IMG/VR virus record: IMGVR_UViG_3300031867_000003
Span: 128,001-192,000 of that record
Origin: a virus
Lineage: Duplodnaviria > Caudoviricetes
Length of the DNA: 64,000 bases
Strand: one strand, 5' to 3'
Made by a program: the position numbers and the translations under genes. Shown here in pieces: positions 1 through 54,044 of the stretch. The notes under the pieces are model-generated. The model saw nothing but the letters and a program-made list of their open reading frames with translations, was not told the DNA's origin and did no database searches. Each line of letters opens with the position of its first letter. The stretch's first letter is position 1.

Positions 1-3000
1 TATTTGAGCTCATCATACGATATGCCTTTAAGGGCGTCAGCATATTCCATAACCGCATCTTTCGCGTTCTGAATTTTGGTCTTACCGGCTTCGAATGCCG
101 AAAACTCGGCGGTATTACGATCTATTCCAAATGCTTCAGCACCAAGAGGAGATTCCCACGAACCGATTTTGCCCTCAAGGTCTTTCATAGCAGATTCATA
201 AGATGCTTCATCAACCTCGAAGTCGGCATTTACTTTGATACCATAATCATCGGCTAAATCTTGTGCTTCACGGAGAAAACGATTTGCACTTGCTTCATCG
301 CCTCGCTCCATTGCATCATCATAATATGATTTAAGGTCTGCAATACTACTCTTGAGATTCTTAAGGTTGCTTACGTATTCCTATGCCTGTCCTCGCTAGA
401 AATTTTGAGTAGCTGTCTGTACGGCATTCAGCTATCCTTGATACTGATCAATGACATCCTACTGAATCGCCAAATCATCGGCGCTTGCGCCTTCACGCTT
501 CATTTCGGCATATTTAAGCTATGCATTGGTAAGTTCATTAGTCCATTTCTACGTCTGAAGTTGAGCGTCTTCAATAGAACTGACGAACGCACCCATTCCA
601 CCATATTCCTCAGCTTTGCCAAACATGTCACGGAACCATTCTTCTCCGGCTCCAAATTGATGGGCGGCTTTAGCTAAATCGGTAAAGTTCATCACCAATC
701 CTTGTGTGCCGTCTTCATATGTTTCAAGTGTCGCCATACCGGCACTCTGCAAATCCATCATGAATTTATGTACGCCCTAGATATCATCGGTCATATATTT
801 AGAGAATTTATCATAGTTCTGTTTGAATCGTGTCGGATCGGATAAACCCCATTCGTCAAAGTAAGCTGCGCGGGTCTTGTAGTCGTCGGTGCCAATCAGA
901 CCTTTATCCCACATTTCTTTAGCTTCTTTGAGATAATTCATTGCCTTATCATAATTTGCTCCTTGATTTACAGTTTGATCCGCAAGTGCAATTTGACCAT
1001 GCTGTGAGAATTGTTCCATAAGTTGCTGATAAGCGGCAAATACTTGTGATTGCTGTTGCTATAAATCCGCAAGTTCTTGCTTTAATTTGCTAATACCCGC
1101 AGTATTTATATCACCGCTGGCATTCTCCATACGGTTAAGGGCTTCGGTAGTTTGATTGATTTTTGTTGTTAAATCATTGTTAGATAATTCATATTCTTGT
1201 TGCGCGAGACGCTGTAATTCGACAACGTTCGCTTTAACGCCGTCGGTTGTATTATAGAATACACCGGATAAATCGGCAGAAGAACCTAAGTCGCTAAATG
1301 CGGTGGATATTGCTTTGATTGTATCCGGAGTAATACCGGTAGGAGTGGTCATTTCCGAGAATGCGGACTAAATAGCAGAAGAGAGGTCTTGCGCTTGAGT
1401 AAGTAATAAATTACGAGCTTGATCATCATAGCCATAGGCGTCAGCAAGTGCTTGCGCCATGGATGATTCGTTTTGGCGGATTTGGTTAAGTGTATCTTGG
1501 TATTCTTGTTTGTTGTTTCTAAGTGCAGGAAGTTGATTCCTCAATGCCCTGTTTTGGTCTGATAAATTCTTTGCTTGCTGTCTGGATAAAGTCGCAAGAT
1601 TTTTGTATTCTTTTTCGTTAGCTTTGATACCTTTTGCCTAATTTACGGTAATTTCGTCATTAATAGCAGAAGCCTAGTCCTAGATATTTGTCATCTAATT
1701 TTGTAATACATTAAGATGAGATTCTGCTTCATTATACATTGGAGAAGTGTATTTCTGGAGACCGGATATAACTTCTTCAGCATCTAATGCTTCCTAATAC
1801 ATGCTTGCTGACTACTCAAGGTCATATATATCTGATTTTGGATTCCCATATCTTTGAGCAAGATCAAGGGCCTCAGACATAATAGATTCCTAAATTCCAA
1901 TCTGTTCTTTTGCATTATTCGCCTATAACTTTGCAAGATTATGAGAAATATATTCTCCTCTGTTTTCAATATCGGTGCGTTCTTTTTGTAACTAATCTCC
2001 GTTAGCTTTGGAAGTGGCATAATCCGTTTTTAGATTATTTAAATCTGTTTGCGCATTTTCTTTTCTGGTTTCTATCATTTCTGTTTCCGTGCTTGAAATA
2101 TTTGCTATAGCCTCTCTATAATCAGCTAATGCTTTATCATATGCTACCTAATCACGTCTATCAGCCGCTTCATTCATCCTTCCAAGTGCGGTATTGGCCT
2201 TATCGTGATATGCCTAAATATCTGATTCATATAATGGCATGACACTATTATTAAGTTCTTCCTCAGTTAAACGTTCGCCTTTTGCTTGACGGTTCTCATT
2301 TCTTGCATTTATTAAGTTTCGCTTTTGTTCATTTTTCTCTAAAACAGCTTCAGCCTCACGATCTTTAATAATCAAATCCCATTCAATCTTTTTATGATTA
2401 TACTCAGCTAAAATTTGCTATAATGTTGATTCTGCCGTAATCGTACCATCAAGCGTCAGTTCCCAAAGAACATTATAATCAAGTTCTTCGCCATTCTATG
2501 AGAGAGCAGTTAATACATCATTATATTTCTATTCGTTAAGATGAGAACCTGTCTAATCTGTATATGAAAACGTTTCTTTTAAACTGTTTTTTGCTGTTTC
2601 GGCAGAAACAGTAAGGTTATCATAAGATTCAATTAAATTATCAATATACGCCTGTGATGCCCTTGTGGCTTCCGGTGTGAGTGGACCTTTGTCTGCCTAT
2701 ACTTTTTTAAACTCTTTGATATATTCAGACAACTATTTAACCGCAGCGTTATTAATGCCTTCAAATGAAAAATCGTCCATACTTGGCATAGCATCTTGCA
2801 AATTTTTCATTTCTTCTGCTGTAAGTTTACCGTTTTCACGGTAAGACTCTAGTGCATTATTCAGTGATGATAAATTAGATTCATACTGTGATGCACTTTT
2901 GGAAAAATCTTCGTCATTGAGAATATCCGCAAGAGTACCGGTTCCGGCTTCTTCTTTAATCTAGGATAACTGGTTCAAATATTCTCTGAGGGATTCAATT

Positions 3001-6000
3001 GTATTGCCAACAAAATTAAAGTTTTGATTGTTCATCGCTGTCTGGGCAATTCTTTGTTCTTTTTGCGTTAAACTCTGTATGTCATCCCAAGATATCTTGC
3101 TTTTGCCTTGTTTATAGACATTTTTACCATTAGCATCTTGAGTTACCTCGCCTCCAAGTCTTTTGAATATGGCAGCTCGAGTGTCAGTAGCGTTCCAGTG
3201 GTAATCACCATTTTCATCCTCATATTTGTATTCAAGACCAACAAGAATTGTTTGCTTTATTTTATAATTTTCAGTTCCTTCGCCACCTGGGAAAATCGTA
3301 TTTAACACACCATTAATCTGATCTCTCATTTCTTTATTGGTGGCGTCATCAAATTCAAAATTAAAAATTTTAGATAAAGCTTCTTTTGATACGTCTCCGT
3401 TGCTAACAGCTTGTTCTATCGGCGCAAGTATTCTATTTTTAATATCATCATCAAAACTTTCGCTATTAGAACCTAACTGTTCATATAATGTATCATAATC
3501 GATATTATATAACTAAGATAAAATACTATCCGTTAAATCTTCGCCGAGATGTAAAAAGTTAGGATCTGTCTTTAAAGTCGAAATTAAATTAGGAACAAAT
3601 CCAGTCGCCCAATTTGCCGACTTCTAAACATTGGCAGACTTTATAGTATCTTGTGCTCTTTCTATATAACCATTAAGAATGTTCTGGTACCCGTCCATAG
3701 AACTAGATAACTAGTTTAAATCGTCCTATGTTAACTTAAATGTTATTTTTTCACCCTAATCTCCGTGGCTATAATAACCATAATCTACCCCAAGACTGCT
3801 CAGTACATTTTCTAGCGCGGATCTGGCCCCGGAACTTGTAGGAGCATCCCACACTTTTGACCCAGTAGAATTTATCTCTGCAATCTTATTCTGTATTTCT
3901 TGTACCTATGATATCTGTTTTTCCGCACCGGCAATTTCGTCGTCATAGTTTTTGTTTCCTTCAACGATTCCTTTAACTATACCAGGCATTTGTTTTTCAA
4001 TTTCATTTGCTTTTATTTTATTCTGTGCTTCAATTAATTCATTTAATTTATCTGTTGCCTATTGAGCATTTTCCCCTAAGTCAACCAAAGACTATCCGCT
4101 ATCTGTTACTCCTGTTTTTAAGGATGGAAATGTATCCGCGAGCTATTGATTGATTGCCAAAAACTCCTCATAATCTTCTGTTGAGAGTGAGAGATTTTTA
4201 ATTTGATTTCCTCTCATATAAACACCGGAACGAAGTTCATTATAACGTTTTCTAGCGTTTTCGCCAACTTCATTAACAGCGGTCATTTCTTCTCTTGCTT
4301 TTCTAGCTTCTCCCTATGCCGCTAATCCTTTATTTATTTTGTTTTCTCTATAATGTGCTAGATAATTAATCCCTTCGATCCCTTTACCAATCGCAGCCGT
4401 AATAGCCATAGAAATTGCACCTGTTGCAAGACCGGAGATAGCAGTTAAACCAACGTCTTTAATGAATGAGGTAGCTATACCCTTAAATGTTGCTTTCTCA
4501 TTAAGTGCCTTTTTAAAATCATCAACAAGCATACCTTTGCCGCCACGTTCTGCAATGCCGGCGATTATGTCTTGCGCTTCATCCTTAGCATTTGATAAAC
4601 CGGTCTGCCTAACATCTCTTACTCCATCCCAGCCAAAAAGCTATCCGACGGTAGTAGCATTTCTATTTCCAGCTATTCTTTTATTAAGCCATTCAATTGC
4701 ATCTTCCTTTGGTTGCGTGTTAAATAATGCGTTCTTAAGACTTTTAAAAAATCCCCCATTAGTAGAATCAAATCTAGTTTTCATATCCTTAAAGATATGT
4801 CCAAATTCCCAATCCCCCATACCGTTTTTACGGAATAATCCGTTTCCGGTAAACTGAAGAAATCCGCCGATTCCGGCTCCAAGAATTCCACTAAGGCCGC
4901 CGAATGCGTCTACTAACTACGTAACTACTTCAACGGCAGAAGTGCCGAGTTCAATGATATCTTTAAGCCATTCACTGTCAATTGTTACTGTTGCCAGTTG
5001 TTGTAAACTATTTTGAAGCTGTGCCATTTTTCCTTCTACAGAATCAAGATATGTGTTAAGCTCGTTTTGTGCCGATCCTTGTGAGTTCATTAAAGAGTCT
5101 TGATAGACATCTTTTAATAGCTGTGGATTTGATAATAGGCTACTTGCTGCTGCTGCACGCGTTTTTCCTCAATTATGTTAAACATGGTTCACAACACCAT
5201 GTGATTCGTAATAAACGAATCTCTTACACTTTCATGCAAGTTCTGACCATTTCTTCACCCTCAGCATCATCTGTTAGGGGCATACCTTTTCGGCGTACCA
5301 TAAGTTTGTACCCTACGATTATTCATAATCTGGTCGATGAACGTTCGCCAATATATATATCCAAAATATACATACAGGCGCTTCGATGCAAGAACAGCCA
5401 ATCTTTATGTTATAAAACCATCATAATATATTTTCATTATTATTGTGGTATAAAGCTCTAAGGCATTACCTGCAATTAGATATGTTCTTTATATATATTT
5501 CTATATATTGTGGCAAGCCGTTTGCCACCGTTTCAAGTAATAGCGACTATCTATTAGTGCCCAGTTTCTTATCTTCCTCACCAATTTCCTTAAATACCTC
5601 AGCGATACCGAGCATACGTTCGTATGTTGTTTTGTAAGTACCGTCGTCATTCAGTATATCAAAACCTTTATATCCGTTTGATTGCACCTTTGTTGCGTCA
5701 AGAATCGTTTGTCGCAGTTTCGATTGTGTAGTAATTAAACCATCGATTTCTTCGCCGGCTTCTTGCATGTCTTCTACGGAAGTGCCGCTCAATCTCAGTG
5801 AGATTGTCTTAAGGGATTGGCCAACCGTGAGAGGATCTTGAAGGACGGCATTTGCAGCAGTAGTAAGAGCCACAGCTTCGTCAAATGAATCCGATCATGT
5901 TAAAGATAGTTCGCAACGCTATCTTAATTTATTGATAAACAATTATCAATCTTTATCTATCAATAAATTCTTTACCTTTCGGCAAAGTCCCGACTATTTC

Positions 6001-9000
6001 TTCACCCTCACCATTACGTGGAGGGGCATACCTTTTCCAATTCCATTTGCGATTGAATTGTACAATTAGTCTGTGAACGTTTATCTTCAATTAAAAAGAT
6101 ACTTCGCTGCGCGATCTACCAATTCTTATTTTTTAAGACTATCATAAACAATTGCTTGCTTATTGTAGTAATAAGACTCTAAGGTTTTACCCGCAATTAG
6201 ATATGTTCTTATAATATATTTCTATATTATCGGGCAATTGTTTTTACCCGTTACTTGTAATGTACCAGCAGATTTCTGAAGTGACTCAGCTAACTCTGAC
6301 GTACTGATTGCGTAGTTATTGCCTACGTAGTTTAACTTATCGATGATTTCCGATTTATCAAGATCTTTATACGCTTGGCTCATTGCAGTTAATGATTCAG
6401 TTGCAGCATTAATGTCTTGGAATTCCGACACATTAAGAAGTACAGTTGACAATTCCGCACTTTTTTGTGCCTACTCAAACGACTCGCCCAGTCTTAACCA
6501 ATCCGCAGTACTTTCTTGAATTTGTTTAGACGTTGTCCCGACGCGATCGGCAGCCTCAAAGCTTCCGTGTTGTGCAAAATCTTTAAGAACACTAAGTGGC
6601 TCGTCAGACACTTTTCGCATTTCCGTGAGGGCAGTGTCAAGTTCTCTGACGATATTTACTCCTTGCTTGGCAATATTGATTACTTCATACAAATCCGCGT
6701 ATGTAAGTAAATATCTCGCCATTCCCTTGAACGAACCTTTAAGAGTCTCACCAAATGATTTGCCGACATCTCCGGCTTCCGTAGCCTAGGTTTTTATCCG
6801 CTCAAATGCTGCGGCGATTTCATCAAGATTACCGGCGGACGCACCATTTATTGCGTCTTGAAGGTTTTGAATTTGTGGGAAGTATTCAGTGGCAGCGGAA
6901 TTTTTATACATCCACTCTGACATACGGCGATTGAGAGTAGCAGCATCTTTTTCGTCGGCGGGAGAGTAATACCCTCCACTAGATCGTTGAACTACGTCAT
7001 TCAATCTGCCTCTAAAAGATAATACCTAAGCCTAAATCTAGTCACGTCTATCGGGGGTGGCTTTTTCATATTCCCCAGATATTTTAACCAAATTTTCAAA
7101 CTCTTCGTTTAAATCATGCAGAACGTTTACTCCATCTTCATTCCAGTTTCCATTGCCTAATTTTTGAAGAACTTCACCCATTTCCTCAAGGCTGTCGGTA
7201 AATGCAGACGTCTGCGCCTCATTCATAGTGTCATCAAATTGTTGTCTTAATTGTTTTAACGCATCCGATGCCTCACCTTGTGCGGTGACGAAAAGTCCAG
7301 TTTTATTTATCGCATTTTCATAAAAAGTTCCATATCTGTTTAAAAACGCCTATTCAGAATAATCCAACATCTATCCGTTTCTCTGCTTTTCATTAATTTG
7401 CGCATAACGCTCTGCATACTTAATAAGTGTTTGATATCCACGCTCAACATTTTCAAATTCATAATTCTCATTATCATTAAATGCGGACATCCCTGATTTT
7501 AAAACGTCCACATCTGCCATTTTTTGTCTATAAGTATCAAGAGCCGCATTAGGAACAGTCCCATCGTTTCTCTAATTCAATTTGTCAAGCGATTCATATG
7601 CTTTTTCTGCTTCCTCGCGATACTTTTCCATTGTTTTTATCGCCTGTTGTAGCTAATTGGCGCTTATCTCTCCAAGATTAAACATATCCTATGCATTAGA
7701 GGCTCGCTTTGCGGCATCATAGTATTGCTATATTTTACCGGCCTATTCACCGACATATTTAGATTCAGTAGCCTCCCATTCCTTTGCCAATCTGGCATCA
7801 TGTGAGGCAATAGCTCTATCTAAATCATCTCTGGATTTATAAGAACCATCTTTCGAAGTTACCCATTTGTCTAAAGCAGAGTCTGTCTATTCCTATGTAA
7901 TTTTCGATGCTTCCTTAAATTCATATATTTTTTCTATCGCTTCGTCCGCAGCTTCTGCTGTATCTTCCATCATTCTGACAATAGAACTTTTTACATTGTC
8001 CGGAATCACTTGCCCTTTTGCCTCATCTGTCAACATTTTATTATACGTATCTCTAGCTTCAATTGCCCTTTTTATTATATTAATTTGCTCTTCATATTCA
8101 TCCTTATTCTTTTTATTCACTGCAGCTGTTTTTTTATCCTAGGATTGTGCGGAGCCATTTTGAGCAGCTTCCCACGCTTTTATCCCTTCTTGATATTGCT
8201 CATCTGTAATATCATCTTTTATAGCCTCTAATTCACGCTTCGCGTCAGCAGCTTCTTGATATGCTTTTGTTAATCTAGAAACGGCCTCAGCCCATTCTTG
8301 TGTTTGTTTAATTTCAGGATTAGACTCGGCTTTTGCCTCTAGCTCATTCATTTTAGTTCTAGCGTTAAATAATTCTTTAAATTTATCAGTTTGTTCTTTA
8401 TAAAAATCACTAATCGTTTTATTTCGTTTTTTATTATCATCAGCTTGTGCCTTACCCTATGCCTCATAACGCTTACGCCCCATATTATATTCAGTGTTAC
8501 GCGCTTTTTGATATTGCTATTCTTCCATAGCGATTGCCATAGCATCTGATTTTTGACCTTCATATTCAGCATTTACATCCTTAAAACGTTGTTGAATAGA
8601 TCTTAATTTATTATTAAATTCCTCTAGGTCTTTGGATTTAAGATTGGAGCCGATATTTTTTTCAAGATCACTCAATTCTTTTTCTAAATCTGAGGTATCT
8701 ACATTAGACTTCTACATCTTACGCATGGTATTATGTATATCAGTAGTTAATTTATCTTTGGCAGCTGTTATGCTATATGGATTAAACTGAGTGTTTGCCT
8801 TTTGATTTTTTATAGCCTACTGCGCCGTTATTTTATATTCATTAATCGCAGCCCCTAGCTGTTCCTTTACTGTTTTCGGCATTTCTTGCCCAGCGTATTT
8901 ATCAAAGAAATCTTCGAATATTTTATTATACAAATTAGTAAGCTTTGTATCGTCCTCACTTGAAAAAGTTACTCCCGCATTATCTATATATTTCGCTTTT

Positions 9001-12000
9001 ATATTTTTAAGATTGCCCTTTTGCCTAGCAATAAGAGCATCGGTATTTTCAATGGATTTATTTCGCTTTTCGTTTTGTCTAAATTCTATTTCTTCATTTC
9101 TCTATTGTAACTTCGCCTAAACAATATCCGCAGACTCCTTTGCCCTTCTCTCGAAATCTTTTTTCTAATCTTGTCCAGGTTTATTATCAGCGCTATCGTA
9201 ATATCCATATAATTCATCGGTCATTCTCTGAAGCATATCATAGTATAATCCAAGTTCGTTTTGCATTGCGTCGGTGTTTTTACCTTGTTTTTCGGCATTT
9301 TTAATATTATTATCCAGCGTAAGCACTTTGTTTTGCATGCTTATTACTTGTTTTTCAAGGCTTTCATAAGTATTGTCTGTTTTAACCGATTCAAACTCAT
9401 TACCATCCTCATCGCGTATAATTCTAGTGGTTGCCTTTTCTCCATAGCCTAATCGCATAGTATAGGACGTTCTTTCGCCGTTTACTTTTGTTTCCCCAAT
9501 ATACGTACCTTTTCGATTATCAGAAGTATCACCTTGCTGAGTTACCTCAGATATAGCATCTGAATTTCTCTCAGCAGCTTTACCTTCATTATCAAGGCCT
9601 TTTGTCGCTTTCTTTGTGGCGTCAGCCGTCTTTTCACCAGATTCAGCAACTTTTCGGTTAGCCTCTTCAAATTTCTTCTTTTTTATCTCCGAAACCTCGG
9701 CAGCGTCACCCTCATTTTTTATTTCCTTAGTGGCGTCCCGAAGCGGTTTAGCTCCATCAGTTGTGTTTTTCGTAATTTTTACCGAAGACTCAGATAATAA
9801 TTCATTTAAATGTTGTTGATCATCAACTGATTTTTTAATATAACTTAGAAAATCATCTTTGCTAGATGGTGGATTAGATAAATATTCGTAAAGCTATGAC
9901 AATGCACCCTATGTATTAGTAGAAGTATCAAAGATGTGTCCAAAAGACTCATTTATCTCTTCCAAAAATGATATCGCATCTGAACCTTTTTTAGTTGATA
10001 AAGTACCAATACCAATAGTTCCAAGAATGTTGTTCCAGTCATCACCAAATTCTTCTCGGTCACTTTTAGAGATTCGTATTTTATTAGATGATACAAAACT
10101 TCTAATTTGTTTCCATAAATTCATATCGCCATATGATTCAATTACTCCGCTATCCCTAGAAAGAATATCAAACAGATTATCATAAGTTGGTGTTTCACCG
10201 TTTGCGGTTTCAACCAAAAGATTTCGAACTTCATTTTTTAATTGTCCAAATATTTTAGTGGACTTCACACCGAATTCATCACGAATGGCAGACGCTACCC
10301 TAGTTGTTTCTTTTTCTAAGTTTTGTTCATCAATTATAATATCGTCTATAGGCGACTCACTGGGTATACTTTTATCCCACATATTAGATATTTCATTAAA
10401 AGTATATCCAAGTTCTTTTGCTTTAGAATTAAATTGATCTATCGCGTCTGTAAACGGAAGATTTTTTTCTGTAACCTAAAATTCCAAGTCGTCTACTATA
10501 GACTACAAACTTTTTGGAGCCAACTTGGTCATATTTTCAAATTTCTAATGCGGCAAAATATCCTCGCCATTTTGTGAAATCTTCTTCCAGGATCCAGATA
10601 TTTCATCAAAAGCATATCCAACTGACTCGGCAAATTTTCTAACGGCCTCTTCACCTTTAATAGACTCCTTGGTTATTTGATCTAAGAAAGCACCATATCC
10701 GTCCGGAAGTTCATCCTCCGCCATTCCCATAGCATCTAAAATAGGCTATGTTCCCTCTGTGAATTTCAATATTTCACCATTTACACGACCATTTCTTTCA
10801 CGTTCGGCTACAAGTTCTTCCTATCTTTGAGCTATATGAGATTTAAACTCATCCATTGCCGCATCATATTCTTTTTGCCCAGTAGCAACGTCGGCTATTA
10901 GCTGATTTACAAAATCTTGATTTGCATCAGAATATCCCTCTATGGAGCGGATATCTTTTCCAAATGTTCGACGTCTGTCGTCTGGGACGGCAACTGGTGA
11001 AACTGGAGCCCCATCAGAATCTCCAGCTTTATGATTTTCATCATCTATAGCATCGGCTGCCTCTTCAATCTTTTCTGCCGTTTCTTTCCCAGATTCAGCA
11101 ACTTTTTCTTTATTTACTTTCGCGAATTCTTCTTTATATGGGATTGCCTCTTTGGCGGACTCGCCCTCGGTTTTTATTGCGTTTGCACCTTCGCGGAGAG
11201 AAGATAAGTCAATAGAAGATATGGTAGACTGAAATGTTGTGATAGATTTATTTAACTCATCAAAATTACCGGCAATGCTTTCCCAATTAATATTTGATAA
11301 TATAGAATCGTTACCACCTAAACTAAAAGCGTTCTATATAGCCTCTCCCATTTTTTCGGCGTTCTCAGCAACTTTCTGCATTGTTTCGTTAAGTTGCTCA
11401 AGAAATGATGGCGCTTTTGCGTCTTTCGGAAGAAGCCCCTTTGACATTACATTATGCAAATTGCCTATTGCATCTGTAAATAATTGGATTTGTTGTGTGT
11501 ATTCTTTTACGGAATCGGATTGCCCAATTTCATCATCAGCTTTTATTCTGGTCTAACTCAACGTTTCAAGTAACTGGTCTTTTAACTTCTGTTTATCTTC
11601 AGGAGACTTTGTAATTTCTGCCTTTTCACGAATTCTTTTACTTATATATTTGAAATCCGTTGCCGGAAAATTTGATTCCAACATTTGATCCCAAAATGAG
11701 TTTTCCCCTTTTCCGACACTTTCAGCGGTTCTCTATATAGAAGAGATGAATGCCATTATTTGTTTAATCTGGGTCTTTGAATCTGGTAATAGTTTAATTC
11801 TATCTGGATTAAACTATTCAACGAATTCCTAAACATTAGGGAACGCTTCCAAAAACCCGGAACTTCTTGGTGACTATGCCATAATATTTGCTAAAAGCTA
11901 TATATCACTAACATCTCCACCAAGCATACCTTCATCTTTTAATGATAATTTATATTTGTTTACGACGTCTAATATATTTTTATATGCTGCCTAATATCTT

Positions 12001-13619
12001 TCAGCCTAATTTAACCATTCTGTTTCTATATTTGCCTCAATTGCTGCGTCCGCTACATCGTCTTTAACATGCACATTAAACTATTGTTCTTTTCTTGATG
12101 TGGCTCTCGAAAAATCCCACATTTCTCTATTAAGTTGCAATAATGATTTCTGATTATTTCTAGCTTTTTGGTTAGTACCTTCTCCAAATCTACCTATAGC
12201 ATCAGATACCTAATTAACCACAGATAACAAAGACTAAAACTAACTAATTAACGGTTCTATTCCAGCGTCTGTATCTATTTGACCAAATGCAGAACTAATA
12301 TTTGTTATTTCCGTATTTAAATTTTCTAGTGTATTAATCAACTATTGAATATTTTCCGTATTCCAAGACGTAGAATCACCACTTGTAGCATGAATTTCTG
12401 AAGACATTTTTTCTTTTTTTTTATTAATATTTTCTATATGTTCCTCGGTATCATTTAAAGCCTATTCCGTTTCATCTATATTTGGCATTTTTATTTTTGA
12501 AAAATCAAAATCATTAATAGCCTATTTAATATCATTAAGTGCATTTTTAAGTTCATTTAATGCGTTTGTTGCGGAAGTTATTTGTCCCTCATCAATTTTA
12601 AATGTTAGTCCATTACCATCTTCTCCGAGAGCATCTAGGGACTACGAGACTTTATCTATAATATTTTGAAATTTCTAAAACGTTCCGTCATCTTGAAATG
12701 CTTTCTTAATTTTGCCAATAGAATCGGCTACGCCGGATTCGGTCTCATCTTCAACTCTATCAGCCATCTGTTTGGATGCCTCTAACTCCCTCTCAAGTTC
12801 TGCTCGCTGCTATTTTAATGACTTAACCTAGGACTTATTTATTTCATCTGGATTTCTTCCAAGATTCTATAAATTTTTATTTCTAACATCAACCAGTCTA
12901 GCCTATATGTCTTTATAGTTTTCAAACACGCCGGAATCTTTAATTATTCTGTTATCGGGGTTTAGAGCAGTTCTTAATTTTTTAGTAATATCAAATATTA
13001 TTTGAGAAAAATCTTTATCGTCAAACCCTATTAACTAACTCAAGTCTCCGCCTTGACCCAAATATTTAAATAAATTATCAATATAACCACGCAAATCACT
13101 TGCATTTTCCTTAGAAAATAGCCCGTCCAATTGAACATTTGATGTAGCAAGCTATTGTATCTTTCTATATCCTTGACTATTAGAATCAAGTAAATCTCTT
13201 TGTATTTTCCTAAAATTATTTTTTGCCTAGTTAGCATTTTTAATTTGTTGATTTATGTTATCAATATCAAAACCGATTACTTCCTCTGGTCTAACAGTTG
13301 TTTTTCCGGCTATCTGATTAACGGTTCTTCCAACATTTTCTAAATTGCTCTATACTTCTCGAAGAGAATTGCTAAGTTCGTCCATCCCTGCAACATTTAA
13401 ACCAAATAAATCTTCGCCGTTCTATCCTTTATACATCTTTGTTACATTTTTAATCGCGGATTCAATGTCCTTAATTGAGTCTAATATTTTTGATGTATCT
13501 ATATCTGCATTAAATTTAATTGGTTTTTTAGCTCTTCTTTCCAATTCGTCTATTTTTTTAGTGCCACTATCATCAACTTCAACTTTCAACGGCACAATCA
13601 CGGTTTCAGTTTCTTTCAT
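1..13619 (-). CDS. Tape measure protein, >4300 aa in window, runs off left edge; exons 13619-6246, 5891-5524, 5169-<1; many in-frame TAG (Gln)
   Basis: The ORF fragments starting at 13619, 10730, 10382, 9458, 8351, 8120, 7226, 7004, 6722, 6452, 5873, 4532, 3329, 1352, 1019 and 761 share one frame and end in TAG where inspected. TP901-type TMP core (VRELDTALTEMRKVSDE, ESTADWLRLG, KLNYVGNNYAIST). GGGGTGA RBS before ATG 13619. Confidence 0.92.
5170..5523 (-). ncRNA. Group I intron in tape measure gene (354 nt, no ORF)
   Basis: Core motifs: AATTGCAGGTAA (P), GTTCATCGACCA (R), AAGAAATGGTCAG (S); P7 GACCA/TGGTC; terminal G. Removal joins LLETVA|GKTRAAAASS in frame. Confidence 0.85.
5892..6245 (-). 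ncRNA. Group I intron in tape measure gene (354 nt, no ORF)
   Basis: The 5' exon ends ACGGGT and pairs with IGS GCCCG (U.G at splice site). P AATTGCGGGTAA, R GTTCACAGACTAA, S AAGAAATAGTCGG; terminal G. Splicing gives AGTLQVTG|DSFDEAVALTTAAN. Confidence 0.92.
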
Positions 13620-36681: not shown

Positions 36682-36685
36682 TGAG

Positions 36686-37002: not shown

Positions 37003-37060
37003 AAAACAATAAATTAAATTATTAACGCAATGCCACGTTAAATCCATCAAATAAAATAAT

Positions 37061-37084: not shown

Positions 37085-37094
37085 AAATTACTAA

Positions 37095-39124: not shown

Positions 39125-40882
39125 TTATTTAAATCTGGTTACTTTTCTAGGTTGGCGGAATGTAAATTGAGAGAATAGAGAGTTTATATCTTGGTTTTTC
39201 GGTCTCAACTTTAACTCCAACTAACACGCACACCAATAATTATAAGCAATAGAAGAGTAACGGTCTTTACGCATACCTGACTATTCTTTAACTTTAATGT
39301 TACCATTCTTAACCTCATGATCGAGTTTAATTAATTCATACTCTGCCATAGTTGTTTGCAAATACGGCATCTTTATATATGCCTAATCAGTCGGAGAGAG
39401 TTTGGAATAGGGTTTATATAATTTTACCAATTCCTCTTCACATTCTTGTTCTGAAATAAGAAAGCTAATTCTACCATTCTATATTCCATTTCTAAGCAAT
39501 ACACATATTTCGTTATTGAAAGTTGCACCAGCTTTTACTGACCAAACAACTTTATTTGCATCTTTAACTTTACATCTAATAGCCATGTCTTCATCATTAA
39601 TGCACGTTAACGCTTTATATGTTTTTCCAGTCGAAGAATCATATTGATCCTTACAAATAAAATCGAAAATTCCAATTCCTAGTCCTCCTGTATCAACCAC
39701 TAAGTCAGTGCATTTGTATTCATAGAAATAACGCATAACAATAATCCCAAGTTCGTCAGTTGTTAACCCTTCGAAAGTTTCTCCGTAAACTACATTTGAA
39801 TGATAACTTATGTCATCCTACTGAATCGCACTATTGATATATAATGCAGCTGCGTCATTCTTCTTTTTCTTTGTTGATCCCATAAGAGCTACGTCAACAG
39901 AAAGAATTCGTTTTTCTGTTGCAGAAACATCGGGGACTTTGATTTTATCATTATAGAATTTTAGTGGTAATAAGGCGTTTTTGATTTTTCTCTATTTATT
40001 TATCTCTTCCCACTTAAAGAGATTATCACCATCATCTCCGACCCACATACATTCCATTTCCATAGTAAAAGCAAGTTCATTAAAGTCAGCTTCTGATTTT
40101 TCATCCATTACTTGATCTTTGGACAAAAGACCTTCTTTGATGCTTAATTGATATGGTAGTCCACAGCAAAAATATCTCTTAGTGTCATCGAAAAAATTAA
40201 CCACATATGCTTGTAACTTTTTCCATGCCCATGAACTTTTAAAATAAGCACTACTCATATATATTTCTTTATTTCTTTCTTGCAGATGAGAATACTCTGG
40301 CTTATTTAAATATCCCGGCTATCTAGGACTCGTTAAAAATTTACGAATAACCAAATTCAAAATAGTCTCATCAACCATACGAAACTCATCAACTACAATG
40401 ATATTCGCTCTAGCACCACGAGCATTATCTGTACTAGTTCTTGTTGTAATCCAAGAACCATTTTTAAACATAATAATTGCATCATTCTATCCTATGTTAC
40501 ATTTTTCTATTTCAGTACATAAGATAGGAGACATTTTCATTAGTTCATCCTGTATTTTTAACAATACTCCATTTGCCTATTTAAGAGTACCGGAACAAAC
40601 AACAATCTTACTACCAGGATATAATATACATCTTACAACACAAAAGAGCGCAGTAAGCCAACTTTTTGACATACCCCTTGCGGCAATAAACATAAAGTAA
40701 TTATAATGCATCATCGCCCATATTAATATCTTCTAAAAAAGCTTAAGGTGTATGCCTAATACTTCTTCAACAAACCGCTCTGGATTTGCACGATAATAAG
40801 CTGCTCTAAAAGCAACTGTCTACATTATTTTCTGTTCTTTGTCCTGAGCAATTTCACGAACAGATTTCTTTTTTTCAGCCAT
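39125..40882 (-). CDS. Terminase large subunit (585 aa, multiple TAG)
   Basis: LKLF(Q)KI, Walker A ARGMSKS, Walker B IIVVDEFR, coupling motif YMSSA, RNase-H motifs LSVDVA and KDRYSS. Confidence 0.93.
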
Positions 40883-41937
40883 CACAATTCCTCTGTGGTT
40901 CCGAATATCTGATCAAATAGAGTTTCGGAATCTGTATCTTCATCGTATTGTGGTTTATCAACTGTGTATTTTTTGATAAACTTTTCATACGTATGAGAAA
41001 ATGCATTTTTTAGTCCCATCATACGAGACATATGACCTTTAAAAAATACATCAAGATAAAGTCCTATTTTATTAACTGAACGAAATTCTTCGTCAGGCTC
41101 AGGAATAGGTTTTTCATTTTCCCATTTTTGTATCAACTGCCCAAATGTTTTAGCCTCTGTAAGTGCATTGGAATTATTTTGATTAGGTTTTAATGACATA
41201 CTCCCCATTAAATCTTGAAGCGTTTTATCTAATTCCTTTGTATCTTTACCAGCCTTTTGGGCCTTATCTATATCTAGTTCTTTAAAGCATATACGTTTAA
41301 ATAATATTTCTTGTGCCTTATTTTCACAAGCATAACGCTTTATCCAATCTTGATATTCTGTCTCTAAAAAAATTAAATCAGAATTTGTATACCCATCACC
41401 AAATCGTTTTTTGGCTTGTTTCAGAGTTCTAGAATTTTCGTTTATCTCTTCCTCATCTTTATCGAGATAATCAGGGGGAAATTCTGAGTCTCTCCAGCTT
41501 TTATTTTTATACTGAAACAGACTTTTTACCATTACGATATACTGACTCCATGCGGTTCCTCTATGTTTATCTTGTATATCCTCAGAGGTAGACGAAACAG
41601 CAGATTGATATAAAGAATCAATATAGGGCAAATCCATCATTCTAAGTACATCCATTGTTTTATCCCGATTATCAGTATATTGATTCGTTTTCTTATCATA
41701 ATCACAAGCCATTTTAATTAAACATTTTTTGCAAATTGGAAACAGCCCACTTGAGTAACTTTTATCCGAATAAAAAGCATCGGTATTGTGGAACTCATTA
41801 CATTTTGGACATAGAAATACATCCCCATTTATTATGCGATTATAATCCTTAGCTAATTTATTATATTCTTGTCTAACCTAAGCGACCCCAGTTTTTCTAA
41901 TTTCCTCCTCTGTAAGTGCTTGTTTTAATCTAATCAT
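40882..41937 (-). CDS. YonG-like protein upstream of terminase, possible small subunit (351 aa, TAG at codon 20)
   Basis: Read-through extends ORF 40882..41712 with CPKC...CKKC; TFGQLIQKWENEKPIPE motif. Confidence 0.7.
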
Positions 41938-43232: not shown

Positions 43233-43313
43233 TAAAATAATAAATTTCACCACGGGAATCGAACCCGAAGCAGAAGAGTAGTAGTTACTCTCCCGCGTAC
43301 CAACCTAAACAAA

Positions 43314-43415
43314 TCAATGTGTTATTAATTTAACAACATTGCAAAATGCAACCGTCATACTCCAGCCACCAAGAACAGCTACAAGGTTGCAAATAATTTT
43401 GTCACGTAGGCGCAT
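43314..43415 (-). CDS. Small hydrophobic peptide (33 aa)
   Basis: Perfect SD AAGGAGGTGA; MRLRDKIICNLVAVLGGWSMTVAFCNVVKLITH. Confidence 0.55.
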   Translation of the reverse strand: MRLRDKIICNLVAVLGGWSMTVAFCNVVKLITH

Positions 43416-44413: not shown

Positions 44414-45002
44414 TTACCAACCCAAAAAGTCAGTATTGATAATATCTCCAATCATACCTCTATCAAGGAATTTAGTCCCCTTATATCTAAATTGATGGCG
44501 ACCGGTTTCATCCTAAAAGCAGAAGCAAAATCCGTGATTATCCTCGTCTATACACAGAGAATGATGTGGACCATGCTCATCACTCTGAATAAGCCTATTA
44601 CCTTCCTCATCAAACTCCGGCTCACCGATAATCATTGGGAATACATCGCCCTCAACGTGAGGATAATCCTCAATATAATCATAAGCGTACTCGGCAGCAA
44701 TAAAATAATAGTCCGCCTCACAGTATACGAGCATCTTATCTCCCACATATTTCTCGGGGTCTGTAAACGCCGGCTGTACCAAAATAGTACGTTCGTCAAT
44801 GCTAATAATATACGGCCCATTATCTTCTTCGGTAAACTCGGAACAATCGCTAAGTTCGCAGCCGAAGCGGATTCCAATATTGATGAAATCCCTAGCATCG
44901 TCGTAATCGGCGATAATCGGCGATAATTGCAAATCTCAGTTCATCGTCCCAATAATCATTAAAGAAACAATCAACGTCTCTAATAATTTCAACATTTCTC
45001 AT
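44414..45002 (-). pseudogene. Acidic hypothetical protein frameshifted by a 10-bp tandem duplication; 1 TAG
   Basis: ATG 45002 with AAAGGA RBS; ATTATCGCCG is duplicated at ~44904-44927; removing one copy fuses FAIIADYDDAR and the frame reads to TAA 44414. Confidence 0.65.
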
Positions 45003-45047: not shown

Positions 45048-46265
45048 TCATTGCTTAAACTTAACATCATATATACAATCAAGGCCTTCATTCTCATCGA
45101 TAACAAGAACAGTCTGCTCGGGGTAGTTATTTAGTCGCTTACTTATTGCAAACGAATCAGTACCGGACAAACAGCCGGTTTGCACAACTTTAACGTTGCT
45201 CCTGGTCATATAAGCATTGGTGTGTCGATGACCGAGGAGAATTAAATCCCACTTAATTCCTGTCAACTGATTAAGGTTATCAATGACATTATCCGGGGTA
45301 TCTTTGTCGCCATGGACAAATGCCACATTCATACCGCGAACGGCAAACATCGCAATACCTTGTTCAATGTCATTAGTATGGAAAGTAACATTCTTAAAAT
45401 TCTGAAGTTTAGCACTCAAGAACGGAATCACCAAATTATCAAAATTCTCATGATCGAGACTTTCTTTAATGTTTGGAGTAATTCGTGAGTGATTCCCGGG
45501 CGCCACATATACATTTACTTCATTAAATCGGTAACTAAGTGCCGCAATAAAATCTGCAACATAATCCATCACCATAAGAAACTGGTCAATCAAATCTTGA
45601 TTATTCTCGATACGGAGAGTGGAATGAATAATTCCCGATAGCATCTCAGATAGTAGTACGTAGGCGTTCTGACAACCATGAATAAGTTGTATCTCAAATA
45701 TACGGTCAAGGTAATGGTTAAGTCGTCTTTTTAACACATCCTCGTTGTACTCATTCCAAAAATTCTTAATCTCGAGACCGGCATGGACATCGGATAACGG
45801 AATAATCATATCTTTATCAGAAGTAATAGTGCCATGAAAACGAGCATTGTCCTCGTACTCCAGAGCGCGAGAATCCGCAGCATCAGTAATAGAACGAACA
45901 AACTGCTCCATATAGGATTCCTTCCGCGCTTGTTCGCGGAGTAATCGCCTATACTCATTACGCTCATCGCGCACCTTGACACGTTCTTTCTCCAGTTCTC
46001 GGCGAAGTTCGCGCAGCTCCTCGGCGTCCGCCGATTGAGTAGCGTCACCGAAATCCTCGCGGAATTTACGAACCAGTGCATACTTCTTCCTAAAAACTGA
46101 ATCCGTAACATACTCGTCCGGGTTATCATTGAGTTCTTTATTAATACACTCGGCCAACTCGGGCCAAGTCATATCAATAAGTCCTTCATATTTTTTATCC
46201 CCCAGTCGGGTAATATACTGGAGTTCTGTTTCTCCGGGTAAACGTTTGGTAATTTGTTCAATCAT
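45048..46265 (-). CDS. Calcineurin-like metallophosphoesterase (YonJ-like)
   Basis: LSDVHAG, PGNHSR, FVHGD, LGHRH motifs. Confidence 0.88.
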   Translation of the reverse strand: MIEQITKRLPGETELQYITRLGDKKYEGLIDMTWPELAECINKELNDNPDEYVTDSVFRKKYALVRKFREDFGDATQSADAEELRELRRELEKERVKVRDERNEYRRLLREQARKESYMEQFVRSITDAADSRALEYEDNARFHGTITSDKDMIIPLSDVHAGLEIKNFWNEYNEDVLKRRLNHYLDRIFEIQLIHGCQNAYVLLSEMLSGIIHSTLRIENNQDLIDQFLMVMDYVADFIAALSYRFNEVNVYVAPGNHSRITPNIKESLDHENFDNLVIPFLSAKLQNFKNVTFHTNDIEQGIAMFAVRGMNVAFVHGDKDTPDNVIDNLNQLTGIKWDLILLGHRHTNAYMTRSNVKVVQTGCLSGTDSFAISKRLNNYPEQTVLVIDENEGLDCIYDVKFKQ

Positions 46266-46906: not shown

Positions 46907-47521
46907 TTAAGCAAGTACCTCATCAATTGTAATATCTTCACCAATTATCTTGTCAACGACGCCAAGTTCTTTAGCACGATCTGCGTACATATAAAGCTCA
47001 ACGTCATAATGTTCATCATAAAATTGCTCGTCCATGTTAGTACGGTTAAGAACAAATTGTTTTGCTCGGTCTTCTGCGGAGGAGAAAAAGCTCATTACTT
47101 CCTTCGCTTTTTTTGTACTGTTTGCAATACTTATGGAACCATCGTGCTGCAAAAAGATACTATTAGAGAAGGCCACGCGCTCATGACAAGCCAAGAATAT
47201 ATGATAGCAAGCAGACGCAACCAAAGATAACCCAATGCCGATAACCGGCGTCTTACTCTGGAGAATAACATCCGCAACATTCTGTGAGACGAACGTATCC
47301 CCACCGACACTACTAAAGAATATTTTGATCGGTTTACGCTTATCTACCGGGATATCAACGTCATCCATATTCCATTTGAGAATATACATCACAACGTTTT
47401 CTACCATGTTATCATCAACTTCTTCATTAAAAACGAGAATTCTTTTATTTAAGAACTCTCGATATAATTCATCATATGTGTCCGACTGAGAGCCGGAAAT
47501 CGGCAGTATTAAATCATTCAT
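46907..47521 (-). CDS. clpP: ClpP-like protease
   Basis: KPIKIFFSSVGGD, LVASAC (catalytic Ser), FLQHDG (His), AKELGVVDKI. Confidence 0.85.
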   Translation of the reverse strand: MNDLILPISGSQSDTYDELYREFLNKRILVFNEEVDDNMVENVVMYILKWNMDDVDIPVDKRKPIKIFFSSVGGDTFVSQNVADVILQSKTPVIGIGLSLVASACYHIFLACHERVAFSNSIFLQHDGSISIANSTKKAKEVMSFFSSAEDRAKQFVLNRTNMDEQFYDEHYDVELYMYADRAKELGVVDKIIGEDITIDEVLA

Positions 47522-47545: not shown

Positions 47546-47845
47546 TCATTCCTCACTCATTGCCTTGAGACGAGCCTCGACCTCACGGCGAACACGCTCT
47601 TCAAAATCGGCCTCACGGTCCTGGCGACGACGCTTCATAATTTCATCAAGGTCTTTTTCCAGTTCGGGGGTTTTCTCAAAAACAAAAACTGACCGTTTGT
47701 GGTCAGCATCATTTCTGTCAGCCTTAAGATGGGTAATTCTATGCCCCTTATCAAGAAGTTCATTAGCTATTGCAGCTTTTCTTATTATTTTACCTTCAAC
47801 TGTTTCATCATTCGTATTTTGATTAATTGTATTAATTGTTAACAT
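47546..47845 (-). CDS. Hypothetical protein (DUF5659-like)
   Basis: IANELLDKGHRITHLKADR...SVFVFEKT; similar to 49238..49408. Confidence 0.65.
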   Translation of the reverse strand: MLTINTINQNTNDETVEGKIIRKAAIANELLDKGHRITHLKADRNDADHKRSVFVFEKTPELEKDLDEIMKRRRQDREADFEERVRREVEARLKAMSEE

Positions 47846-49203
47846 TATTCCTTATTCTCCTTTTTAATTTCTTCATATGAAAAAAATGTGTTATGGTGTG
47901 TTTTTTGACGCCCGAGACAAACGTCACTCACAGCTTTATGATTATACTTACCGTTTGTCTTTCTTTCCACATCAATACAAGAGTCATAAACACCGATTAA
48001 ATTATAATCCAAATCATAAGCATAAACTTTACGTCTATTTTTTACGGACGGATTATTATTATAAACATTTCGCTTTCTTTCAGCTATAAAATCATAATCA
48101 ATTTCCCCATTTTCATATGCATCTTGCAAAAAAATTTTTACCCTTCTCTTACTTCTGTGAAGAGCTTTTGCAATTTCAACATAATCAGATTCTGGATTAT
48201 TACTTTTGTAATCCATTATTTCCTTCAATATCTTATCCTTTTCCGTTATATAAATAGACTGCGCAAATTTACGATATTTATCTTTATCCGTTTTTAATAA
48301 TCCAAGCTTATCCGCTTTAAGGATATAGTCACGAAATGTATGAAATCCAATATTTAACAATTTAGCCCCATCTTCTTGAGATATACCGCCATCAAATAGT
48401 TTAATGGCTTCTAAAAAATTAGATTTATTCGCAGCTATTTCGCATTCAGTCCAGTTAACATCAGAATCGCTAAAGTTTAATATCTATGGGAGAGAAGACT
48501 CTAATACAGATTTTTTAATATATTCTAAGTCGGAAAACGCACAGTCTAACTCTACATAATTTTCAATGCCATTTAAAATGGCTTTCTCTCTTTTTTCTTT
48601 ATCGTTTTCTTTTTGCTCTTCCAAAGACCTCATATAATTAACTTGTTCAAAATGTTGTCTCCCGTGATTTTCTATTATTAAATTATAATCTGGAATATAT
48701 TGATCATAACGTTTTGTTGGGCTCCATTCAAAAATATGTTCTGGTCTAAATTCGACATTTAATTGTGTTAACATATTCCTAATAAATTTATTAGGATAAC
48801 TTATCCCATCGGAACATATAGGGCATGAAAAACCATAAGTATGTAATTCCGAAACGACAATTTCTTTCACATGTCCGCAATTAGGGCATTTTACTTTGAT
48901 TCTTTTATTTGACTTAGGTCTTACGTTGTCTCCATCCTTAGGGTTTAATAAATATTTGGTTAAATCCGGTCTTAAAGTATTTAAATCATTGCAACCCGGA
49001 AGTACCTTCCTGCCAGAACAAACTGGACATCCATTTTTTAATCTGAGAAGTTGATCCGGTTTTCTTAAAAATTCAAAACCATCATTTAAACATCTTACTT
49101 TAATAGGCACCTTTGAATTTACATACTCCGATAACACCTAAATATTTGGATGTTTCTTTTTTAATCGTTCCACAAATTCTTCATGAGTTAATAATTTTCC
49201 CAT
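47845..49203 (-). CDS. Zinc-ribbon/Vsr-like endonuclease with NUMOD1-like tail (452 aa, 2 TAG)
   Basis: Fragments 48484..49137 and 47845..48360 are in frame; GCPVCSG, KRYDQY..LIIENHGRQH; related to 32605..34173. Confidence 0.8.
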
Positions 49204-49424: not shown

Positions 49425-50630
49425 TTATTCAAATAACTTAGCAAACAATTTACTTGTTTCACTTCGAACATCTTCCTCTAAATAAATACAAGCAAATTTA
49501 GGATTGCCTCGTAATTCCAAACTCATTTTATTAAGCGCATTATTCTTTGTCGGATTAATGACACTTTGTTTATAGTCACCATTGTAAAAAACCCGAGAAT
49601 TTTCGCCGACACGAGTACCGATTAATCGTATCTGCTTTTCTGTTAAATCCTCGGCTTCATCTACAACAATTACGCTATTGTTATAAGTGCGACCCTTAAT
49701 AAAATACGGAGTATTAGCTTCGATTACTCCGCGCTGAATTAATGATTCAAGTTCAAATTCTCCTCCGTCTAATTGATCGGCAAAGGGCAGTAAGAAGTCA
49801 TAAATTTTGTCTAGTTTCTCACCTGGTAAATAGCCGACTGCCTCACCCTCCGAAATAACCTCGCGAAGTGCAACTATCTTAGATTGCCATCCCTTTTCTT
49901 GAATAGCATAAGTAGCCATACAAGTACTTAGTCTGGATTTTCCAGAGCCGTAGCCACCTAATATTGAAGCTATAGTAATGCTTGGATTATTCAATATGTC
50001 CAATCCACATCTCTGGAGAGAATTCTTACCTTTGATATATTTTGACGGTGGCAGCTTCAACGGTACAAACATCGAACCGTCAAACCGCATTTCCTTAATT
50101 GAATCGTCATCTGTATTATTAATAATGATATACTCATTCGTATACCATTTAGAATAGTCTAAGTTATTCATATAGTTATTAATATACTCGGTATCCCCGG
50201 TAATCTTAACGTATCCCTTATAAATTTCATCCTGATGTTCAAATTCCTCAACGTCTAAACCAAACACTTGCTCGGCAATTACACGACATCCCACATCAAA
50301 AGTAATAAATTTAATAGGAGTTACATTGGTAGAATACCAAGACGCACACGCACAAATAATATTATCCGGCGTTTCGGGTATATTGTAAGAATTGATTAAT
50401 TCCCTAATGGAATTATTATAGACAATGACCTCATATCGGTCTTTGTGATCGTTTAAGAATCGGATTGCTTTACGAGCCGCCGAACGAACATCATCTGTCT
50501 TGGAACGGCTATTTTTAATTTCTTCGAGCTCAAACAATGTTTTATCAGAAATAACAAACTCAACATCTGAGAAATAATCCGGATTCTCAATCAACACATT
50601 AGTATCTAGGAATAGTTTTGCATCGCCCAT
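49425..50630 (-). CDS. phoH: PIN-domain + PhoH-family ATPase
   Basis: FLDTNVLI (PIN), GGYGSGKS, VGYLPG, IKGRTY, VVDEAEDL, GDYKQ. Confidence 0.9.
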   Translation of the reverse strand: MGDAKLFLDTNVLIENPDYFSDVEFVISDKTLFELEEIKNSRSKTDDVRSAARKAIRFLNDHKDRYEVIVYNNSIRELINSYNIPETPDNIICACASWYSTNVTPIKFITFDVGCRVIAEQVFGLDVEEFEHQDEIYKGYVKITGDTEYINNYMNNLDYSKWYTNEYIIINNTDDDSIKEMRFDGSMFVPLKLPPSKYIKGKNSLQRCGLDILNNPSITIASILGGYGSGKSRLSTCMATYAIQEKGWQSKIVALREVISEGEAVGYLPGEKLDKIYDFLLPFADQLDGGEFELESLIQRGVIEANTPYFIKGRTYNNSVIVVDEAEDLTEKQIRLIGTRVGENSRVFYNGDYKQSVINPTKNNALNKMSLELRGNPKFACIYLEEDVRSETSKLFAKLFE

Positions 50631-50937: not shown

Positions 50938-51213
50938 TTATGCGTTAACAGCTTCCTTTACGCTTGCACCAAATTTTACCTTCGGCGCTTCTTTAGCCGG
51001 AATAGCAAGAGGTTCGCCATTCTGCGGATTGCGTCCGGTATAAGCGTCTTTGTGAACCGTGTAGAACTTCATCCCCGTAAACGGAGTAACACCGTCCTCG
51101 GTCTTCATAGCTTCTACAATGGCCTCACCGACACCGACAAGGACTTCTTTCATATCCTTCTGAGAAAGATTACACTTTGCTGCACACAGTTTTACAAAAT
51201 CAAGTTTCTTCAT
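50938..51213 (-). CDS. hup: HU-like DNA-binding protein (YonN-like)
   Basis: GRNPQNGEPLAIPAKEAPKVKFGASVKEAV; AAGGAG RBS before ATG 51213. Confidence 0.92.
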   Translation of the reverse strand: MKKLDFVKLCAAKCNLSQKDMKEVLVGVGEAIVEAMKTEDGVTPFTGMKFYTVHKDAYTGRNPQNGEPLAIPAKEAPKVKFGASVKEAVNA

Positions 51214-51377
51214 AATATAGTTCTCCTTTTTTTTCCTTAATATAATTGTATAATTGAATTTACGCCATTCTCGGCAATATAGCGTAAATGTAGTAAACAT
51301 AAGGGTTTGCGATCCCTCATAAATGCTTGAATGGGGAAATTGCAAAATTTCACGTATTTACTGGAATTTTAAGCATT

Positions 51378-54044: not shown

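Follow-up and report, generated by a model that had tools for sequence, protein, structure and literature searches.

The locus described here raises the question of whether a group I intron that interrupts the anticodon of a phage suppressor tRNA serves to time a genetic-code switch, or is simply tolerated by the phage that carries it. The tRNA lies within a 64,000-nucleotide stretch of viral DNA (hereafter the window), which comprises bases 128001-192000 of the 202,175-bp IMG/VR record IMGVR_UViG_3300031867_000003. The completeness of the whole record is estimated by CheckV at 100%, and the source is a complete, SPbeta-like phage. A preliminary description of the window proposed that a TAG-free RNA polymerase is made in the host code, that it transcribes TAG-containing virion genes together with an intron-split tRNA(CUA), and that splicing of this tRNA adds a 'ribozyme-timed AND gate' to late gene expression. 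We think it likely that the late genes of this phage are indeed subject to a code switch, and that the intron is a selfish element, mobile or lost now and then, which the phage tolerates and which does not serve regulation.

To locate in-frame TAG codons, we called open reading frames (ORFs) with TAA and TGA alone as stops. The late block, taken as the minus-strand ORFs leftwards from approximately window position 44932 (genome 83-173 kb, ~89 kb), contains 304 in-frame TAGs among 27,764 codons. These are distributed over 46 of 63 ORFs, and the coding density of the block rises from 0.575 under code 11 to 0.924 with TAG as sense; the late block therefore requires TAG to be read as a sense codon. 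The upstream polymerase block (window 45048-59555) and the early plus-strand genes are standard-code. Their coding densities, 0.892 and 0.77, respectively, are the same under either code. The polymerase block has two TAGs in 4,329 codons, and TAG acts as the terminator of only 4 of 115 ORFs in the early plus-strand block. For the polymerase ORF itself (856 codons), about nine TAGs would be expected at the late-block rate, and none is observed. The genes for the polymerase, the HU-type protein and the PhoH ATPase are thus TAG-free, as had been described. The block that contains them is not wholly so, since both of its TAGs fall within one homing-endonuclease-like ORF. Likewise, TAG was found as claimed in the terminase, portal, YonB-like, tube-like and tape-measure genes; 12 other ORFs in the late block are free of it, including those of the integrase, the IS21-type element and an aminotransferase as well as ORF 37095-37502. 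The gene after the tRNA, previously labeled a protease, is a homolog of YonD and at most a putative protease. The ClpP-type protease gene lies upstream and lacks TAG.

We then examined which amino acid TAG is likely to specify. In an alignment of TerL with 120 homologs, 8 of the 11 TAG columns had glutamine as their most frequent residue, and in four it was invariant or nearly so. Because some of the database TerL homologs are themselves recoded, the test was repeated against L011, a standard-code relative whose TerL translates by table 11. Across eight proteins, glutamine occupied 11 of 27 aligned TAG positions, and every other residue occupied at most two. CAA and CAG together account for 2.9% of codons in all blocks, to which the late block adds TAG; the latter makes up 27% of glutamine codons in late genes. 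Together, these observations give good support to TAG as a glutamine codon (code 15). Serine and leucine, candidates suggested by the long variable arm of the tRNA described below, were ruled out, as the aligned residues are mainly glutamine.

The suppressor tRNA had been placed on the same strand as the late genes, between the portal gene and the supposed protease gene. ARAGORN in intron mode places it there as well, reporting a tRNA(CUA) with a 231-nucleotide insert (window c36685-37002). When used with default settings, ARAGORN missed this gene, as did Rfam at gathering scores, and only a tRNA-Pro was reported for the window. As the sequence reads, the CUA anticodon arises only after removal of the intron, and splicing is obligatory for tRNA function. 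The spliced molecule is predicted by ARAGORN to form a cloverleaf in which the acceptor stem is paired, D and T arms are present, the loop has seven nucleotides (CUCUAAA), and U8 and U33 are in place. Its body is type-II-like, with an A1.C72 mismatch, a long variable arm and G73, and CCA is not encoded. The acceptor end resembles that of the phage's own tRNA-Gln; a weak 1:72 pair and G73 recur in all CUA tRNAs of the phage family and in the phage tRNA-Gln(UUG).

The insert has the expected elements of a group I intron. An Rfam alignment places P3-P8, and by direct reading the exon sequence CUCU pairs with intron GGAG to form P1, with a U.G pair at the 5' splice site. For P10, intron GUUUU pairs with AAAAC of the 3' exon, and the intron ends in GUAAG, with the terminal G immediately before the 3' exon. 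RNAalifold analysis of nine members of the intron family gave 20 pairs in the 3' core, seven of them with compensatory changes; the 5' half was poorly aligned. The intron is homologous to one found in the phage's own tRNA-Leu(UAA) gene (genome 11553-11952, plus strand). That intron is a 314-nucleotide group I intron at the classical site between U34 and A35, and exon 2 of the gene begins AAAAUCCG. It, too, was missed at the Rfam gathering score, and ARAGORN wrongly labeled the split gene a tRNA-Phe(gaa); an orthologue of the gene at locus L019 has 95.6% nucleotide identity.

A second CUA tRNA, a gene for release factor RF2 and an aminoacyl-tRNA synthetase gene, which the preliminary description had suggested looking for elsewhere in the genome, did not turn up. 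ARAGORN and Rfam together found only one credible tRNA(CUA) in the 202 kb, and it is located inside the late block, downstream of the standard-code polymerase block, as had been proposed. The genome contains no release-factor genes (PF00472, PF03462), RF1 and RF2 included, and no GlnRS/GluRS domain (PF00749). The giant late ORFs with 57 and 55 TAGs imply nearly complete suppression, yet neither a release factor nor a synthetase nor a recognizable anti-RF1 gene is present in the genome.

One further element with CUA in its loop was considered as a second suppressor. It lies beside the tRNA-Pro gene and was rejected: it was reported only by ARAGORN at the 85% threshold, with no Rfam tRNA match at E<=10. 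It consists of an 11-bp hairpin and a T-arm-like hairpin, without an acceptor or D arm and with A at position 33, and so was also discarded as a functional tRNA. At the position of this element next to tRNA-Pro, loci L075 and L089 carry a tRNA(CUA) that is intact and intronless, and in L032 a homologous hairpin has the loop UUUUUAU. The element looks like a remnant of the intronless tRNA(CUA) that is kept beside tRNA-Pro in relatives. Two odd Rfam tRNA matches, at genome 12087-12168 and 14050-14141, were set aside since they have no CUA loop.

YonO transcribes the late genes of SPbeta as one operon (Forrest et al. 2017, PMC5467207). By analogy, the YonO-like polymerase plausibly transcribes the late block of this phage, and the phage enzyme would then probably produce the tRNA(CUA) along with the late mRNAs. 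A terminator-like hairpin and T tract lie 58 nucleotides upstream of the tRNA. L021 keeps this hairpin, although one of its pairs has undergone a compensatory change from G-C to A-T, and comparable hairpins lie ahead of the tRNA(CUA) in the complete genomes G001 (10 nucleotides upstream) and G006. One might speculate that it insulates the tRNA from read-through by the host polymerase while letting the YonO-type enzyme pass. The hairpin also raises the possibility that the host polymerase transcribes the tRNA alone, from a promoter between the two, in which case the supply of suppressor would be independent of the YonO-like polymerase. In keeping with this, the hairpin and T tract separate the tRNA from the upstream ORF, and the spacer in the window phage is AT-rich. 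However, no sigma-70-like site was scored between hairpin and tRNA, where the count of promoter-like sequences for the region equals the shuffled expectation, and in G001 the tRNA starts so close to the T tract that there is no room for a promoter. The SPbeta late operon has annotated stem-loops as well, yet YonO transcribes it as one unit. We therefore regard a separate host promoter as doubtful. When the 28 intergenic gaps of the minus-strand block were searched for a late-promoter motif that recurs among them, nothing persuasive emerged apart from intron cores and one AT-rich 14-mer at four sites.

A search of IMG/VR with the spliced anticodon arm identified intronless orthologues at L021, which is identical in sequence to L033, and at L032, which derives from a different metagenome. 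The tRNA(CUA) of L021 and L032 corresponds to exon 1 and exon 2 of the window gene joined, with a single-nucleotide difference and no intron. BLAST breakpoints between L021 and the window fall exactly at 36970 and 36738. The context of these genes is the same as in the window (YonG, TerL with 12 TAGs, portal, hairpin, tRNA). The intronless gene confirms the predicted splice junction, and a recoded relative evidently does without the intron.

This pattern extends to other members of the family. Among 44 IMG/VR loci with a TerL of the family, about 12 have TAG in TerL and 32 do not. Intron-bearing tRNA(CUA) genes were found in three members, namely the window phage, G001 (TerL 92% identical to that of the window) and G006, and also in the distant phage G002. 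At least six are intronless (L021/L032, L075, L089, L093, L109 and the complete genome G007). Code 15 and the intron co-occur in the window phage, G001 and G006, and the intron is lacking in recoded L021/L032, G007 and others. The intron-bearing genes of G001 and G006 have anticodon and variable arms in common with the intronless genes of L075 and L089. This second allele thus occurs with the intron (G001, G006) and without it (L075, L089, G007), which indicates that the intron is polymorphic on two different tRNA bodies. In addition, G001 has an intron in its tRNA(CUA) and none in tRNA-Leu(UAA), whereas the window phage has one in both, and members of the intron family are found in tRNA-Leu(UAA) and tRNA-Ile(UAU) genes of other phages.

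Our interpretation of the intron as a tolerated mobile element is based on this patchy distribution, on its presence in sense tRNAs and on the general intron load of the phage. In the mechanism that we propose, the early genes and the YonO-like polymerase block would be readable in the standard code of the host. By analogy with SPbeta, the polymerase would then produce long late-block transcripts that include the pre-tRNA; the intron would splice itself out, and the joined exons would fold into a tRNA that accepts glutamine. More plausibly than splicing, the many TAGs per gene could by themselves switch late proteins sharply on and off, as the yield would equal the suppression efficiency raised to the power n. 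For the 112 TAGs of the two largest ORFs, about 98% read-through per codon would be needed for a yield of 10%. The intron family, for its part, would colonize the anticodon loops of phage tRNAs that have the form C-U-(N)-U/A (the slash marks the insertion site here and below).

The preliminary description saw the intron instead as a selected timing element. In a model of this kind, slow or conditional splicing (responding, for example, to GTP or Mg) and the polymerase would jointly gate the late proteins and curb leaky expression in a lysogen. It is consistent with an anticodon that exists only after splicing, in what is the sole credible CUA tRNA of the genome, and with the recurrence of the intron between positions 35 and 36 on at least two tRNA(CUA) bodies within the family and, in a distant phage, on a third one. 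Adaptation of the intron to its exon is also seen in the guide GGAG, which is matched to the CUCU loop. However, recoded relatives have the same tRNA at the same locus without the intron, the second allele is likewise polymorphic, and recoded family members have at least six intronless tRNA(CUA) genes. The same intron family resides in tRNA-Leu(UAA) and tRNA-Ile(UAU), where a gate on the genetic code is inconceivable. Late genes are full of group I introns, as selfish spread predicts, no regulatory feature is visible in the 231 nucleotides, and nothing in the sequence bears on whether splicing is rate-limiting. Group I introns of this type in tRNAs, such as the Anabaena tRNA-Leu intron, are moreover known to splice themselves fast. 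A selected timing role is accordingly quite unlikely, and the gate that had been proposed finds no support and is in part contradicted. More broadly, it is improbable that the intron is more than a passenger in the lineages that have it, either by coupling the TAG-to-glutamine switch, through guanosine-dependent splicing, to late transcription and to the GTP or Mg state of the cell, or by silencing the suppressor in a lysogen. A weaker form of this idea is more probable, in which a lineage of tRNA introns specialized on CUCU/AAA suppressor loops is widespread in recoded phages; if true, such introns would account in part for the 'missing suppressor tRNA' problem that arises when recoded phages are annotated.

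Several points weigh against the reading of a functional, co-transcribed suppressor with a tolerated intron. The intron scores 29.7 bits (E 1.4e-5 in a 701-nucleotide search), below the Rfam RF00028 gathering score of 50 bits. The T loop of the tRNA, UGCAAGU, is odd in that G replaces the near-universal U at position 55, and to this is added the 1:72 mismatch. Because the intronless L021 orthologue has the same T loop, this loop is a retained trait, not damage. Charging with glutamine is inferred from protein alignments, and co-transcription with the late genes, splicing competence and kinetics are likewise predicted; the terminator-like hairpin just upstream of the tRNA makes the transcription unit uncertain. 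The intron is also fairly frequent, being present in three of the four complete recoded genomes examined, and this frequency could reflect a benefit beyond selfish persistence. That the split tRNA is dead, and that TAG is decoded by a host suppressor, another phage factor or read-through, would agree with the sub-threshold intron score, the unusual T loop and 1:72 position and the lack of release-factor or synthetase genes hinting at another designed mechanism, but is very improbable given that 304 sense TAGs (up to 57 per ORF) demand efficient decoding, that the exons match the intact intronless tRNA of a relative but for one nucleotide, that the intron core is conserved and covarying with P1, P10, the U.G pair and the terminal G all present, and that the weak A1:72 pair with G73 is common to the CUA tRNAs of the family and the phage tRNA-Gln(UUG).

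It is classical knowledge that group I introns can occupy the anticodon loops of tRNAs. Those of tRNA-Leu(UAA) in cyanobacteria and plastids, and of other bacterial tRNAs, were reportedly described by Xu in 1990, Kuhsel in 1990 and Reinhold-Hurek and Shub in 1992. Like the classical tRNA-Leu(UAA) introns, the one described here is small, lacks an ORF, occupies the anticodon loop, pairs the U of the 5' exon with a G in P1 and ends in G. Unlike them, it is inserted one position later (U35/A36), with a guide, GGAG, that matches CUCU, and its host gene is a nonsense suppressor on which a recoded genome depends.

Stop-codon-recoded (code 15) gut phages are said to have been described by Ivanova in 2014 and Yutin in 2021. 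Borges et al. (10.1101/2021.08.26.457843) had already described a late-gene code switch and TAG-free integrases, and had proposed that recoding plays a part in timing and, for prophages, in the choice between lysis and lysogeny. The code-15 gut phages of that study resemble the present one in having standard-code early genes, TAG in structural and late genes, a phage suppressor tRNA and a TAG-free integrase. In both cases, standard-code and recoded members are closely related (here 32 versus about 12 of the 44 TerL loci). The homing-endonuclease-like ORF of the polymerase block, with its two TAGs, recalls a recoded intron endonuclease that Borges et al. found in an early gene. The window phage differs in being SPbeta-like, in that its recoded block is immediately preceded by a block with a YonO-type polymerase, and in having a suppressor tRNA split by a group I intron; the introns mentioned by Borges et al. 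are in protein genes only. Theta (hepatitis delta virus-like) ribozymes adjoin phage suppressor tRNAs and have been given a proposed role in the code switch (Kienbeck et al. 2024, PMC10879173). They likewise represent a self-processing ribozyme that, in recoded gut phages, is physically joined to a suppressor tRNA, but they cleave at the 3' end of the tRNA, whereas the group I intron is excised from the anticodon; no theta ribozyme was matched in the window at Rfam gathering scores. In a literature search that was not exhaustive, we found no paper on a phage suppressor tRNA interrupted by a group I intron, nor any on SPbeta-like phages that have a YonO-type polymerase and are recoded. The present case shows that TAG-to-glutamine recoding extends to such phages, whose standard-code and recoded members form a tractable comparison set. 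Pairs with and without the intron on identical tRNAs represent a natural experiment on the ribozyme step in the code switch. For annotation, default tRNA finders miss the gene, and recoded phages may be scored as lacking a suppressor though an intron hides the tRNA.

The relationship to SPbeta is apparent from gene content and order. In the genome, genes from 1 to 83 kb are on the plus strand, and a long block of minus-strand genes begins at 187.6 kb and ends at 83.3 kb. The gene order RNA polymerase-HU-...-YonJ-YonG-TerL-portal-YonD-YonB matches that of SPbeta, with the HU gene after the polymerase gene as yonN is after yonO. The SPbeta-named Pfam families YonJ, YonG, YonD, YonB, YomW and YomU occur in the relatives' orthologues in SPbeta order, and SPbeta YonF is 43.9% identical to the TerL of this phage. 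SPbeta thus has a homologous polymerase and the same order from polymerase to head and tail genes (PMC5467207), but its genes are in the standard code, and yonE and yonD have no tRNA between them. The polymerase homology is distant: BLASTP against YonO gave E 3e-11, with 24% identity over 322 amino acids (aa) for proteins of 856 and 839 aa. The polymerase has a D-x-D-x-D string (DQDSD, residues ~549-553), and the pairwise YonO alignment stops short of it. No match to the polymerase or the head proteins was found in local copies of Pfam or NCBIfam, nor was there one for the YonD-like protein.

Contigs of relatives were binned in Lachnospiraceae and Anaerocolumna genome assemblies, and proteins of Enterocloster phages also resemble the phage RNA polymerase; the host is therefore probably a clostridial species of Bacillota. 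More specifically, the phage would be one of gut or rumen Bacillota, probably of the Lachnospiraceae. Separately, the 125-kb contig L069 (JAZQNA010000029.1), whose TerL is of the same phage family and in the standard code, was binned in a 'Candidatus Absconditabacterales' assembly and is probably a mis-binned phage contig.

Table 1. Features of the window, listed leftwards from the RNA polymerase gene. TAG counts refer to in-frame codons.
Feature	Position	Strand	TAG	Evidence and remarks
YonO-like single-subunit RNA polymerase, 856 aa	51378..53948	-	0	phrog_8308 E 1e-94
HU-type DNA-binding protein	50938..51345	-	0	PF00216 E 3.8e-17; position of SPbeta YonN
PIN-PhoH ATPase	49425..50630	-	0	PF02562 E 1.5e-32, PF13638 E 2.3e-13
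Homing-endonuclease-like ORF	47845..49203	-	2	DUF4379, NUMOD1; polymerase block
ClpP-type protease	46907..47521	-	0	Upstream of recoded block
YonJ-like protein	45048..46265	-	0	YonJ_N/YonJ_CC in relatives' orthologues; last TAG-free gene ahead of recoded block
First TAG-containing gene	44414..44932	-		Start of recoded block; 172 aa only with TAG read-through; relatives have 177-179 aa genes
Decayed tRNA-like element	43243..43315	-		CUA in loop; beside tRNA-Pro(UGG) 43162-43234
TerL (YonF homolog)	39125..40885	-	11	PHROG terminase families
Portal	37529..39109	-	1	phrog_2739 E 2.8e-84, residues 39-520
Terminator-like hairpin and T tract	37060..37085	-		10-bp stem
tRNA(CUA) 5' exon	36970..37002	-		ARAGORN -i; ends ...GTAGT-CTCT (C34, U35)
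Group I intron without ORF, 231 nucleotides	36739..36969	-		Between anticodon positions 35 and 36
tRNA(CUA) 3' exon	36685..36738	-		Starts AAA-ACTAC (A36-A37-A38); long variable arm, T arm, acceptor strand, G73
YonD-like protein	34437..36161	-	3	phrog_3313; YonD_N in relatives' orthologues
YonB-like head protein	30810..31916	-	1	phrog_4088 E 1.5e-54; YonB family at this place in relatives
Group I intron in late gene	28204..28481	-		RF00028 80.6 bits
Endonuclease ORF after this intron	27200-28075	-		phrog_4645
Group I intron near start of tube-like gene	24742..25093	-		RF00028 61.2 bits
Tube-like gene	23880-24671	-	2	phrog_2729
IS21-type element (IstA/IstB-like)	19009..21395	-		phrog_1157 transposase and DnaC/IstB-like matches; GC 0.46; standard code
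Tyrosine integrase within late block	16435..17439	-	0	phrog_1 E 5.8e-29
Tape-measure protein, upstream piece	6126..13619	-	57	PF10145 at ORF end
Group I intron splitting tape-measure gene	5970..6255	-		RF00028 70.1 bits
Tape-measure piece, very long ORF	3..5090	-	39 in window	Genome 126236-133090; 55 TAGs in total

Coordinates of these and the remaining features are collected in Table 1. Apart from the introns of tRNA(CUA) and tRNA-Leu(UAA), the late genes of this phage are interrupted by at least five group I introns, examples of which are listed there. The late block also contains a TAG-free, GC-rich (0.46) island on the minus strand (window 19009-22879) with an IS21-type IstA/IstB pair and a class-V aminotransferase. 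The aminotransferase is cysteine-desulfurase-like (PF00266 E 8e-84), and the island was probably acquired recently, from a genome that uses the standard code.

Two observations concern single loci of the survey. At L107:1061-1147, an intronless tRNA(CUA) lies near a TerL segment (~400 aa matched) that has no TAG; this arrangement fits the published route in which a suppressor is acquired before recoding. At L016:5680-6150, a member of the intron family seemingly contains an ORF, and the exon after the intron, CTAAACCGT..., may belong to another tRNA with a stop anticodon.

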